DNA of 15,571 nucleotides from an uncultured archaeon (GTDB lineage Archaea; Aenigmatarchaeota; Aenigmatarchaeia; GW2011-AR5), in contig CAYJVT010000019.1 in the NCBI GenBank assembly GCA_964373695.1, forward strand, positions 1 through 15,571, given 5' to 3'. Below, piece after piece: positions 3,352-7,730 of this stretch; position 1 is the first letter of the stretch, and every line of letters starts with the position of its first letter. The notes below the pieces were generated by a model, which saw only the letters and a program-made list of their open reading frames with translations, had not been told where the DNA came from and searched no databases. The position numbers and the translations under genes are program-made.

Positions 3352-3867
3352 GTGATTATAATTAAGAAAAAATTAACGAAACAAAAACTGAAAGCGCGGT
3401 CAATTATTATAGGCAGCATAGCAGCTTTCTCAATTTTTGCCGCATTCGGAATCGTTACAGTGCTTCTGCCAAACGAGTTCTTTATCAGAATGACTCCGGT
3501 ATACGTCTATGATTACATATTTCTTGTTATGACGTCTATACTTTCTGGCGCTTACATAGGATTGTGGTACTACACAAAAAAGACGCAGACGAAGTGCAAT
3601 TACGCAGCAACAGGCGGAGCCGTCGGCGGCTTCTTATCTTTCGGCTGCGCAATCTGCAACAAGCTTCTGATTCTTTTGCTGGGCGTAACTGGTGTTGTAG
3701 CGTATTTCATGCCGATACAACCGATACTCGGTGTTGTTAGCGTGGCTTTGCTTGCCTATGCAGTCTATATGCAATCAAAGACTTTGTTGTCGAGAGGCAG
3801 GATTCATTGCCATACAGCAGAGCACCTCGAATCTGGCATGATGGCTACCTTTACTGTAAATAATTAA
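3352..3867 (+). CDS. Multi-pass membrane protein with an intramembrane CxxC (GCAICNK), MerT-like arrangement
   Basis: About four hydrophobic segments, the motif GGAVGGFLSFGCAICNKLLILLLG, and a C-terminal HCHTAEH. The start codon is uncertain (GTG 3352 or downstream). Confidence 0.8.
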   Translation: MIIIKKKLTKQKLKARSIIIGSIAAFSIFAAFGIVTVLLPNEFFIRMTPVYVYDYIFLVMTSILSGAYIGLWYYTKKTQTKCNYAATGGAVGGFLSFGCAICNKLLILLLGVTGVVAYFMPIQPILGVVSVALLAYAVYMQSKTLLSRGRIHCHTAEHLESGMMATFTVNN

Positions 3868-4641: not shown

Positions 4642-4866
4642 ATGAAAAGGAAAAATAATAGCAAAGCAGTCGTAATGATTGTATCAGGAACAGCACTGGT
4701 ACTGGTTGTTTCATTGACAGAGGGCTTTGCGAATGCCGCGGCAAACGCATTCAACCACATAATAAAAGACTTTACGTCAGAGCTGCCCGTGCATGCATAT
4801 ATCGCAGGCGCTATTCTTAGCATTCGGACTGTATACTCGTGCAAGGAGGAATTGTGGTCACGATGA
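4642..4866 (+). CDS. Small hypothetical membrane protein (74 aa)
   Basis: Starts 6 nt after the previous stop and has two hydrophobic stretches. Its TGA overlaps the next gene's ATG (ATGA at 4863-4866). Confidence 0.6.
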   Translation: MKRKNNSKAVVMIVSGTALVLVVSLTEGFANAAANAFNHIIKDFTSELPVHAYIAGAILSIRTVYSCKEELWSR

Positions 4867-5330
4867 AAAGAAAGCTTTCAGGAAAAAATAGTAAGATTCA
4901 TAAAGAAAAATTCCTTAGCCTGTTTAGCGGGTTTTCTGGTATCTTGAGCTTTCTGGGTGGATGGCAGATTTGCCATAATTTATGCCTAGGCATTATAGCC
5001 CTGTTGTCAATGATAGGCATAGCAGTAGTTGGCATGCCTTTGCTGTTTTTGACGCAATACGCTGTATACTTCTGGTCAATAGCAGTATTGCTGTTGATGC
5101 CGACTCTCGTTATTTACTGGAAAAACAGAAGATGCATGTCTAATAAGCTCATTCTATTTAATATGGGCATAGTGATTGTCAGTGTGCCTTTTGCTCAGCT
5201 GCAGGCTTACCAGATTGCATTCTGGGTTGTCGGGGGAATTTTGATTGCGGGCTCTGTATGGATGTTTACAAGGCACAGATTTCAGAGAAACAATAAAAAT
5301 CTGGCTTCCGGTGCTATTTTAGTGCCTTGA
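4863..5330 (+). CDS. Multi-pass membrane protein with a CHxxC motif in the first helix region (MerC-like arrangement)
   Basis: ATG 4863 is coupled to the upstream stop. Motif GGWQICHNLCLGII, about 4-5 hydrophobic segments and an extra loop Cys (RRCMS). Confidence 0.8.
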   Translation: MKRKLSGKNSKIHKEKFLSLFSGFSGILSFLGGWQICHNLCLGIIALLSMIGIAVVGMPLLFLTQYAVYFWSIAVLLLMPTLVIYWKNRRCMSNKLILFNMGIVIVSVPFAQLQAYQIAFWVVGGILIAGSVWMFTRHRFQRNNKNLASGAILVP

Positions 5331-5448
5331 CTAAGAGCCTCCGCGCTTCCGGCGTCAATGAATTTTTCAGGTCCTTTGTGCATATGCAGATGCAGCAGTC
5401 GCACGCAGGGCAGACTCCGCCAGTGCAGCACGGTTTTTTTCTTGCCAT
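5314..5448 (-). CDS. Cys-rich metallothionein-like small protein, 44 aa: MARKKPCCTGGVCPACDCCICICTKDLKNSLTPEARRLLVKALK
   Basis: Translated by hand on the minus strand. ATG at 5448-5446, GGAGG 7 nt upstream (5460-5456), TAG at 5316-5314. Eight Cys lie in residues 7-23. It fills an otherwise empty gap and is below the ORF-track length cutoff. Confidence 0.75.
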   Translation of the reverse strand: MARKKPCCTGGVCPACDCCICICTKDLKNSLTPEARRLLVKALK

Positions 5449-5473
5449 AACATCGCCTCCATTTTAATAGTTT

Positions 5474-5497
5474 CTTCTGTATACTAATTGACAGAAG
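5474..5497. promoter_or_regulatory. Inverted repeat CTTCTGT-N10-ACAGAAG; candidate operator in the divergent promoter region
   Basis: Perfect 7-bp arms between the divergent starts at 5448 (-) and 5521 (+). Flanked by AT-rich TATA-like tracts at 5462-5469 and 5501-5507. Confidence 0.5.
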
Positions 5498-5520
5498 CGG
5501 AATTTAAGGTGGGCAGTTTC

Positions 5521-5895
5521 ATGGCAGAAACCAGTTTACGCGTAGTAACCAACGGAGAAAAATGCAGAATGAAGGGCAGCGGCTACTGCCCGAAGCCTCT
5601 GGAGCAGGCGGCAGTTTTCTTGAATAAAAAGTGGGCGCTTAGCATTATAGTGACAATCGGCAATTTCGGCAACTTGAGATTCAACGACCTTCTGGGAAGA
5701 ATTGAAGGCATTACGCAGAAAACATTATCAGAAAGATTGAAAGAGCTTGAGCGATATAACTTGGTAGCCAGGCAAGCTTTTTCAGAAAGACCGCCGCGCG
5801 TAGAATATTCGCTGACAAAAAATGGCCATAGATTTAGAAAGGCTGTTTTGCCGCTGCTGAAGCTTGCAGAATCCCAGACCTTTATTAAAAATTAA
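5521..5895 (+). CDS. HxlR-family (MarR/DUF24-type) winged-helix transcriptional regulator with N-terminal Cys
   Basis: YCP...KKWALSII...LRFNDL...GITQKTLSERLKELE...PPRVEYSLT is the HxlR-family signature. ATG 5521 (GGTG upstream) is preferred over TTG 5488. Confidence 0.92.
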   Translation: MAETSLRVVTNGEKCRMKGSGYCPKPLEQAAVFLNKKWALSIIVTIGNFGNLRFNDLLGRIEGITQKTLSERLKELERYNLVARQAFSERPPRVEYSLTKNGHRFRKAVLPLLKLAESQTFIKN

Positions 5896-6629: not shown

Positions 6630-6858
6630 TTGCTGAAATCCGGCGGCAGGCCTGGAAAGGAAAAAGTCGGCATTGTCGGCGCTTTTCTGGGCATCTTCAC
6701 GTCCGCATGCTCGATATGTTATCCTATAGTCAAGGTGAAAGCCGGCGGCTTTCACCTTCCTGCCTTTCAGGGGCGCCGAATTCCATGCTGCAAGCATAGC
6801 CCTGCTATTGCTTTCGGTATTTTTCACTTCAAGAAGCATAGAATGCAACAAATGCTGA
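6630..6858 (+). pseudogene. Frameshifted small two-TM CxxC membrane protein (MerT/MerF-like layout)
   Basis: The frame starting at 6630 gives ...VGIVGAFLGIFTSACSICYPIV. The +1 frame from about 6742 gives PAAFTFLPFRGAEFHAASIALLLLSVFFTSRSIECNKC* (TGA 6856-6858). The frame switch falls within the palindrome at 6732-6758. Confidence 0.65.
6732..6758. repeat. Perfect palindrome AAGGTGAAAGCCG-G-CGGCTTTCACCTT (13-1-13)
   Basis: Arms checked base by base; they are exact reverse complements. Confidence 0.95.
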
Positions 6859-6860
6859 AC

Positions 6861-7730
6861 TCATTTTTTCTTCTTTGCTTCCGGGCCTTTCATCTTCATC
6901 GAAACTAACACCAGAACGACCCCTATCAAAAGAACCGCCGCCGAATACAGCATCATGCTGGATGCGAACACGTCCATGACGGCCGCAAGAAGCGAAAGGA
7001 CGGCTTCCGAAGACTCCAGCTGTGATTTCAATGCCGTTGTCACTATGCCTGTGAGGACGAAAGACGTGGCAACCATGGTGGCGCCTGATATAGCGAGCGT
7101 GCCGCCCACCCATCTTGGCATGTATTTCGCTGATTTCCTTGTGAGGAATATCATGAGGAGCAGGAGCAGTGCGGAAAGTGCTGCAAGGCCGTACAGGGCG
7201 CTCCAGAAGATGCTGACGCCGCTTCTAAACTTGTCCATAGCGTCCTTGAGCTGCGGCAGGGCCTCCAGCATGTCGATTTTGTCTGGTATTTCGGCGCTGT
7301 TCAGCGTGGCGTCCGCGAACTGCGCCCTGCTGACCCCGGCAGGGAAGCATTCCGGCGATGTCTGGCTTGTCGGGGTGACGCCTGCGGGGCATGCCGGTAT
7401 TTCGTTTATCCTGGCGAGAAGCAGCGACCTTATCTGGTTCCTGTCAATCTCTATCGAGATGTCGGGTTCGTCTGTTTCGCCCCTTATGTAGGCAAGGGCG
7501 TTCGCCATCATCCTGTCAATATTAGATTTCAGGAAGTCCTTGGTAAAAAGGCTCGCTACACCGCCGTTTTCAGACAGCATTTGCGGCAGCTTGTCGTAAA
7601 TACCTTCCTTCTCGAATGCCGATATGTAGACTCCGGGGTAAAGCATGGAAGTTGCCGCCGAGCCTGCTATCACGAGCGGTATGACAATGATAAGGATGAA
7701 AGAAATCACGCCCAGCGCCACTTTTCCCAT
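6861..7730 (-). CDS. Hypothetical membrane protein (N-terminal anchor, helical soluble domain with two Cys, three C-terminal TM segments)
   Basis: 289-aa ORF with coherent hydrophobic segments. Its stop is convergent with, and 2 nt from, the 6858 stop. Confidence 0.8.
   Translation of the reverse strand: MGKVALGVISFILIIVIPLVIAGSAATSMLYPGVYISAFEKEGIYDKLPQMLSENGGVASLFTKDFLKSNIDRMMANALAYIRGETDEPDISIEIDRNQIRSLLLARINEIPACPAGVTPTSQTSPECFPAGVSRAQFADATLNSAEIPDKIDMLEALPQLKDAMDKFRSGVSIFWSALYGLAALSALLLLLMIFLTRKSAKYMPRWVGGTLAISGATMVATSFVLTGIVTTALKSQLESSEAVLSLLAAVMDVFASSMMLYSAAVLLIGVVLVLVSMKMKGPEAKKKK

Follow-up and report, generated by a model that had tools for sequence, protein, structure and literature searches.

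The closest described counterparts of the gene treated here are the bacterial metallothioneins (MTs) SmtA, BmtA/PmtA and MymT, the small thiol carriers of mer operons, the As(III)-binding protein ArsD and the targets of HxlR-type regulators. MymT measures ~5 kDa, and the known targets of HxlR, YodB, QsrR and HypR are enzymes such as reductases and dioxygenases. To our knowledge, no MT has been characterized in Archaea so far. A genome survey in Haloferax reports no MT there (PMC9240420). Archaeal mer operons, including that of Sulfolobus with its TRASH-domain protein, are controlled by ArsR-type repressors (PMC3466566), and ArsD binds As(III) through Cys12, Cys13 and Cys18, spaced as CC-x4-C (PMC12415280). 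This work describes an unannotated gene for a 44-aa, Cys-rich peptide, the Cys8 peptide, in a stretch of 15,571 nucleotides from an uncultured archaeon of the Aenigmatarchaeota (GenBank assembly GCA_964373695.1, contig CAYJVT010000019.1; hereafter the window). We demonstrate that its open reading frame (ORF) is a genuine gene of a family found in groundwater DPANN archaea, and we argue that the peptide may bind soft metals.

The coding sequence is located on the minus strand at 5314-5448. It starts with ATG (5448-5446) and is preceded, 7 nt upstream, by a GGAGG Shine-Dalgarno (SD) sequence at 5456-5460 (CCTCC on the plus strand). An initial annotation of the window had proposed a 44-aa minus-strand ORF with such a ribosome-binding site, and this ORF is borne out; the end that it gave, 5460, includes the SD sequence, as follows from the positions of ATG and GGAGG. 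The encoded peptide (4.76 kDa, pI ~9.1) is composed of a basic N-terminus, a 17-residue Cys core and a two-helix tail. Its Cys residues, at positions 7, 8, 13, 16, 18, 19, 21 and 23, are arranged as CC-x4-C-x2-C-x-CC-x-C-x-C and make up 8 of the 44 residues (18%) and 47% of the core. This pattern of eight Cys in 17 residues and the Cys-free tail that follows it (...LTPEARRLLVKALK) had been read correctly to the residue. CC, CxC and CxxC motifs are all present, whereas Phe, Trp, Tyr and His are absent, both here and in 31 of the 37 family members introduced below. Neither a transmembrane (TM) segment nor a signal peptide is predicted. The 3' end of the ORF overlaps the end of a convergent gene (4863-5330) by 17 nt (5314-5330), as the initial annotation had also stated; this overlap is confined to loci that have a neighbor of this type and is not general. 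On the other side, 72 nt separate the ATG of the peptide gene from the ATG (5521) of a divergent HxlR gene.

When 100 related genomes were searched in six frames, the peptide ORF was found in nine further members of the GTDB family of the window, at 75-86% identity. All nine keep the ATG, the SD sequence and the Cys pattern, with GGAGG or GAGGTGA at a matching distance from the start codon. Selection was analyzed pairwise by the Nei-Gojobori method on the 10 orthologues of this family. The mean nonsynonymous divergence (dN) is 0.12, the synonymous divergence (dS) is saturated and dN/dS is ~0.09. The variable columns are distributed over the first, second and third codon positions as 21/14/42, which means that 42 of the 44 third positions vary. 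All eight Cys residues are invariant, and seven of their eight codons alternate between TGC and TGT; Cys conservation with synonymous variation had been suggested beforehand as a check on the gene, and it is found here. The codon-position and dN/dS pattern of the peptide frame excludes antisense or alternative frames as the cause of the conservation. The peptide ORF is a genuine, constrained protein gene.

Homologous ORFs, without which the initial annotation would have regarded its proposal as refuted, also occur beyond this family. In total, 37 non-redundant peptide loci were collected, all of them of DPANN type: Aenigmatarchaeota and metagenome-assembled genomes (MAGs) labeled Woese- or Nanoarchaeota. 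The Cys pattern is identical in 31 of these loci, and the other six gain a ninth Cys (CPCC for CPxC). Scanning 185,579 species genomes for the pattern yielded 26 loci, from MAGs that are labeled Aenigmatarchaeota, Woesearchaeota, Nanoarchaeota or 'Nanobdellati', or that bear automatic labels. Five tested peptide-bearing genomes fall outside the GTDB phylum of the window, and within this phylum a profile search found the gene in 17 of 371 genomes, spread over four families of one class. Six loci (L039, L042, L043, L047, L053 and L054) are labeled 'uncultured Methanosarcinales archaeon' yet have both genes in their DPANN form, with identities to the window of up to 84% (peptide) and 77% (HxlR); the label is probably an automatic misassignment or reflects mixed bins. 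In another locus (L057:3926-4177, plus strand), the peptide frame has no obvious start and reads past the usual stop into a CcdA-like match, which a gene fusion, a frameshift or an error of assembly may explain.

The family is unrelated to those catalogued. No Pfam or NCBIfam family matches the peptide at E ≤ 0.1, and a profile search of the PDB with the family alignment returned nothing beyond chance matches to kalata B2 and exendin, at E ~1. This agrees with the earlier remark that the Cys spacing is not that of SmtA. Among 1.84 billion protein representatives, a profile search retrieved only four small proteins, all unnamed and of the same family, and a word-based protein search added four more unnamed relatives. 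The exact sequence of the window peptide is missing from a collection of 15 billion proteins, which fits a gene left uncalled in the source assembly and agrees with the earlier view of an unannotated, easily missed gene. No longer, fused forms of the peptide occurred among 8000 scored candidates (weak evidence), a search of the ESM Atlas with the peptide gave no usable match, and a literature search found no published description of the family. The sequencing runs that a search turned up are DNA metagenomes from two studies, with no RNA data set among them.

On balance, we favor the view that the peptide is a cytosolic thiolate binder, acting as a sink or chaperone for soft metals, that resembles MTs in function and stands outside the known MT families. 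Judging by the adjacent regulators and other neighbors, Hg(II) and Cu(I) would be the best candidate ligands, with Cd, Zn and As(III) also possible. The initial annotation had proposed a new, probably archaeal, metallothionein or metal-cluster peptide family. Its novelty, archaeal origin, conservation and pairing with HxlR stand. The peptide may be an MT in the strict sense, a storage sink that holds several metals in a thiolate cluster; the C-I-C-I-C stretch and the helical tail are atypical of MTs. Three observations on gene context strengthen the metal reading, namely the replacement of the usual regulator by a mer-type ArsR, a membrane protein with CxxC motifs encoded alongside the peptide and a mercuric reductase (MerA) gene nearby in two loci.

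Neighbor statistics are based on the clustered ORFs within 3.5 kb of the 37 peptide loci. An HxlR gene is present in 23 loci, on the opposite strand every time and mostly <110 nt away; the head-to-head arrangement with a Cys-containing HxlR regulator, noted earlier for the window, is thus habitual. In five loci (L029, L038, L048, L050 and L061), the place of the upstream regulator is taken by an ArsR-family gene (PF01022, 3.5e-15), situated on the same strand within ~30 nt 5' of the peptide gene; in L029 a single base lies between the arsR stop and the peptide start. The peptide-linked ArsR bears C-terminal Cys motifs. An ArsR gene is also found directly 5' of merA in eight of the 10 MerA loci of the phylum, and the merA-preceding and peptide-linked ArsR proteins are 45-60% identical, with the same architecture and common C-terminal Cys motifs (e.g. 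CKKC). Two side observations concern these ArsR loci. The arsR-merA order in the DPANN MerA loci (L079-L087 set) resembles that of Sulfolobus-type mer operons, and a HicB-HicA toxin-antitoxin pair (L029:562-995, plus strand) directly 5' of the arsR-peptide unit of L029 hints that this unit is located in a mobile or variable region.

MerA scores above the cut-off in 10 of the 371 phylum genomes and is encoded near the peptide in L036 (at 663 nt) and G309 (at 3.5 kb). L036 is the locus most syntenic to the window, with merA added to an otherwise collinear cluster. Its MerA gene (L036:2071-3501 of JACQKZ010000024.1, minus strand) encodes 476 aa, reaches 567.6 bits against TIGR02053 (cut-off 454.45) and ends in a vicinal Cys pair (C-terminal ...SCC..); by these sequence features it is a bona fide mercuric reductase. 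Both in L036 and in L085, merA sits between the counterparts of two window genes, of the 4863 and 3883 types. The place taken by MerA in L036 is occupied in the window by a 74-aa ORF (4642-4866, plus strand) between the 3883 and 4863 genes, for which no family match was found. In G309, an arsR-merA operon in which merA is followed by a gene of the membrane protein family TM170, described below, lies 3.5 kb from a unit of HxlR and peptide-TM170. Comparison of the ArsR, MerA and TM170 loci indicates that this type of ArsR stands 5' of MerA or of the peptide, depending on the lineage, and that TM170 accompanies both. The nearby MerA proteins (471-489 aa) align from model position 1 and are without an N-terminal HMA domain; a separate carrier would make sense for such enzymes.

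The commonest neighbor of the peptide, in 23 of the 37 loci, is TM170, a protein of ~160-170 aa with four TM segments. Of its ORFs near the peptide, 21 of 26 are on the strand of the peptide gene, and in 17 of the 37 loci the TM170 start lies between -3 and +52 nt from the end of the peptide gene, with both genes in the same orientation. Halfway through TM3 there is an invariant CxxC, mostly CPxC, and most members have a further CxxC at the C-terminus. The charge distribution places the C-terminal tail, the N-terminus and the loop between TM2 and TM3 on the presumed cytoplasmic side. Such frequent, tight linkage to a membrane protein would be no less compatible with a role as chaperone or relay partner than with one as a sink. 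An AlphaFold2 (AF2) model of TM170 reached a predicted local distance difference test (pLDDT) score of 73, and searches with Foldseek against the PDB and with VIA-align wide returned only generic helical bundles (Z ≤ 8.8). No VKOR, DsbB, CcdA or MerF signal was seen in these fold searches, a result that excludes nothing. The complex prediction for the L002 peptide and its downstream TM170 scored 0.00 in a run without controls and is evidence for neither side.

These elements can be combined into a working model. Soft, thiophilic metal ions would be held by the eight invariant Cys in a thiolate site or cluster. A Cys-bearing repressor, of HxlR type in the window genome and an ArsR of the merA-preceding kind in other lineages, would release the shared divergent promoter so that the peptide is made. 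In the cytosol, the peptide would then take up or buffer ions crossing the CxxC-lined membrane proteins and would either retain them, as an MT-like sink where no reductase is encoded, or hand them on as a chaperone; MerA, where present, is a possible recipient. The C-I-C-I-C stretch and the amphipathic two-helix tail may serve as a docking surface or pack into a small hydrophobic core. From the sequences, we infer the cytoplasmic location of the peptide, its metal binding, its control by the repressor and the hand-off. More tentatively, this would be the first MT- or metallochaperone-type family of Archaea: a DPANN-specific Cys8 peptide under interchangeable HxlR or ArsR control that acts as the cytosolic partner of an undescribed CxxC membrane relay, taking the place of NmerA/MerP in genomes with MerA and serving as the sole soft-metal sink in those without it.

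Several observations weigh against a metal-binding role. The characterized sensors of the HxlR family (HxlR, YodB, HypR, QsrR) sense aldehydes, quinones or oxidants and are not known to sense metals. MTs do not usually have invariant Ile between Cys residues (C-I-C-I-C) or a conserved helical tail. No MerA, ArsD or Acr3 was detected in the window genome, at 91% completeness, and only two of the 17 peptide-bearing genomes of the phylum scan encode MerA. The phyletic spread of the peptide itself, at these 17 of 371 genomes, is patchy. Profile hits of TM170 members to MerT, MerE or MerTP are sporadic, sub-threshold and at noise level; in five genomes, the Pfam models of MerT and MerE did not single out the TM170 genes, and control genomes gave equally weak hits.

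The first alternative to the metal binder is a peptide that handles thiols and binds no metal, either as a redox or electrophile buffer, a poly-thiol that is sacrificed or reversibly oxidized, or as the cytoplasmic protein that exchanges electrons with a membrane thiol-disulfide relay (CcdA/TM170), switched on by an HxlR redox sensor. The commonest regulator of the loci points in this direction. The HxlR protein of the window (5521-5895, plus strand; PF01638, E 3.7e-21) has N-terminal Cys15 and Cys23. In alignments with the B. subtilis proteins, Cys23 falls on the N-terminal 'CPK' cysteine of YodB (5hs7) and on a Cys of HxlR (7bzd). CcdA (DsbD_TM) genes occur in 11 of the 37 loci, three of which have CcdA interposed between HxlR and the peptide, on the strand of the latter, and thioredoxin-like genes are frequent in the cluster. 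Moreover, the one genome of the GTDB family that has this HxlR but no peptide, G001, belongs to the same genus as the window; there, the HxlR-divergent promoter region precedes a 422-aa fusion protein instead (L072:164-1432, minus strand), in which a Cys-rich (C-x-CC-x4-C), multi-TM N-terminal domain is joined to a CcdA/DsbD-like domain. A free peptide gene was not found in G001 (genome 81% complete). However, the ArsR that replaces HxlR is of mer type and has a Cys-rich tail, which points to a thiophilic metal signal, and MerA is encoded near the peptide in the two loci named above. Eight Cys in 17 residues are also more than a relay needs, and the AF2 model of the peptide shows no thioredoxin-like fold. 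We regard a purely redox role as unlikely.

An adaptor or regulator carrying Zn or an Fe-S cofactor, in which the Cys core would hold a structural or sensory cofactor and the tail would dock on the repressor or the membrane protein, so that the peptide would modulate signaling and not buffer metal, is a more doubtful proposition still. It draws on the predicted structure of the peptide. AF2, run on a 16-sequence alignment, gave a mean pLDDT of 65, with helices at residues 25-30 and 33-43; residues 1-24 are without regular structure, and the pLDDT is ~52-54 for residues 1-20. The invariant Ile22 and the Ile or Val at position 20, which alternate with Cys, suggest together with Leu27/31/38/39/43 a small hydrophobic core or docking face, and the conserved, amphipathic two-helix tail and invariant Ile suggest a folded mini-domain with a protein-binding face. 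Inside the GTDB family, co-occurrence with one HxlR orthologue is strict, the peptide being present in nine of the 10 genomes that have this HxlR. Yet a 75-85% identical peptide is paired with the unrelated ArsR in five loci, and a specific partnership of the peptide with HxlR is therefore unlikely. The Cys spacing is, in addition, unlike known Fe-S or zinc-ribbon motifs, and the PDB holds no sequence match.

Conservation and context speak against two further readings. A precursor of a secreted or modified Cys-rich peptide, comparable to ribosomally synthesized and post-translationally modified peptides, is very improbable: the ORF is short, Cys-rich and stand-alone and has small membrane proteins nearby, but it is without a signal- or leader-like hydrophobic segment, it is under strong purifying selection over its full length including the tail, its Cys core is N-terminal, unlike that of most precursors, and no radical-SAM, YcaO, lanthipeptide-type, peptidase, maturase or exporter genes are found among the recurrent neighbor families of the 37 loci. 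A regulatory leader or chance ORF without functional product, which the frequent position immediately 5' of another gene might suggest, is scarcely credible given a dN/dS of ~0.09 across 44 codons, the conserved SD, start and stop, and the presence of the peptide in loci without a co-directional gene 3' of it (in the window, the next gene is convergent).

The regulation assumed for the favored soft-metal binder can be placed on the 72-nt intergenic region. An inverted repeat, (A/T)TAGT-N11-ACTAT, is located at 5467-5487, where it overlaps both promoters. Of the 13 loci with an HxlR at least 67% identical to that of the window, 12 have it 39-45 nt 5' of the peptide start codon, across three GTDB families; more distant loci have a different palindrome, of the TACTTT...AAAGTA type. 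The repeat is a candidate operator to which HxlR would bind. Another candidate operator, CTTCTGT-N10-ACAGAAG, was discarded, as it is kept only in the window and its closest relatives. Within 5449-5520, the TATA-like tract of each gene overlaps the SD region of the other.

The remaining genes of the cluster encode further membrane and thiol proteins. The TM170 copy of the window (3352-3867, plus strand), with its intramembrane CxxC, lies 1.5 kb from the peptide gene and clusters with the downstream genes of other loci. By BLASTp clustering, a 92-aa ORF at 6630-6908 (plus strand) belongs to the same family; at about half the usual length, it is apparently a truncated second copy. The convergent gene at 4863-5330 (plus strand) encodes another protein with four TM segments, the first of which begins with a C-H-x2-C motif; it has no Pfam or NCBIfam match, and membrane proteins of its type are present in nine of the 37 loci. 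Besides CcdA, His-rich extracytoplasmic proteins recur (16 loci). A thioredoxin-cupredoxin fusion and CcdA/DsbD_TM belong to the wider cluster, to which relatives add a piece of a P-type ATPase, its HAD hydrolase domain; the window genome as a whole encodes CcdA homologues and two P-type ATPases.

DPANN archaea have tiny genomes, and little is known of their stress physiology. The peptide would show how such cells cope with thiol stress or with metals of the mercury or copper type. If the proposal holds, it would provide a new small metal-binding scaffold, a Cys8 core with a helical hairpin, and would extend the HxlR regulator family to targets of a new kind. At this length the peptide can be synthesized, which makes the hypothesis directly testable.

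Compared with known systems, the peptide comes closest, in its proposed function, to the bacterial MTs with their adjacent repressors and to the small Hg(II) carriers of mer systems. It shows the low mass, high Cys content, CC, CxC and CxxC motifs and scarcity of aromatic residues and His by which these proteins are recognized. Like SmtA, BmtA/PmtA and MymT, it is a small, apparently cytoplasmic, Cys-rich protein without aromatic residues, and MymT is close to it in size. As in the SmtB-SmtA pair, a winged-helix repressor of the metal- or thiol-sensing kind adjoins it, which in five loci is a member of the ArsR/SmtB family itself. However, it shows no sequence relationship to SmtA, BmtA and MymT in Pfam, NCBIfam or the PDB and has no His ligands. 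It also differs from the bacterial MTs in its Cys spacing, its invariant C-I-C-I-C, its conserved helical tail, its usual regulator, which is HxlR and not ArsR, and the membrane protein gene that is often found directly 3' of it. The resemblance to ArsD is one of a short motif only: the first three Cys of the peptide are spaced CC-x4-C, like those with which ArsD binds As(III), whereas PF06953 matches neither the peptide nor the window genome, the peptide lacks a thioredoxin-like fold, and no ArsA, ArsB or Acr3 context was seen. The carriers of mer systems (MerP, NmerA and the Sulfolobus TRASH protein) are likewise small thiol proteins that occur with Cys-pair membrane proteins and an ArsR-type regulator. 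The peptide has neither the HMA domain of MerP and NmerA (GMTCxxC) nor the TRASH motif (C-x19-22-C-x3-C), it has eight Cys and not two or three, and most genomes that carry it are without MerA. The MerT, MerE and MerC transporters are marked by one Cys pair in a TM helix and another on the cytoplasmic side; TM170 has an invariant CxxC in TM3 and frequently a C-terminal CxxC, and its matches to the MerT and MerE profiles stay sub-threshold. Finally, the loci share with the HxlR, YodB, QsrR and HypR systems the divergent layout of regulator and target and the palindrome in a short intergenic region; unlike the enzymes controlled there, the target here is a poly-Cys mini-protein, either by itself or accompanied by CcdA or a CxxC membrane protein.

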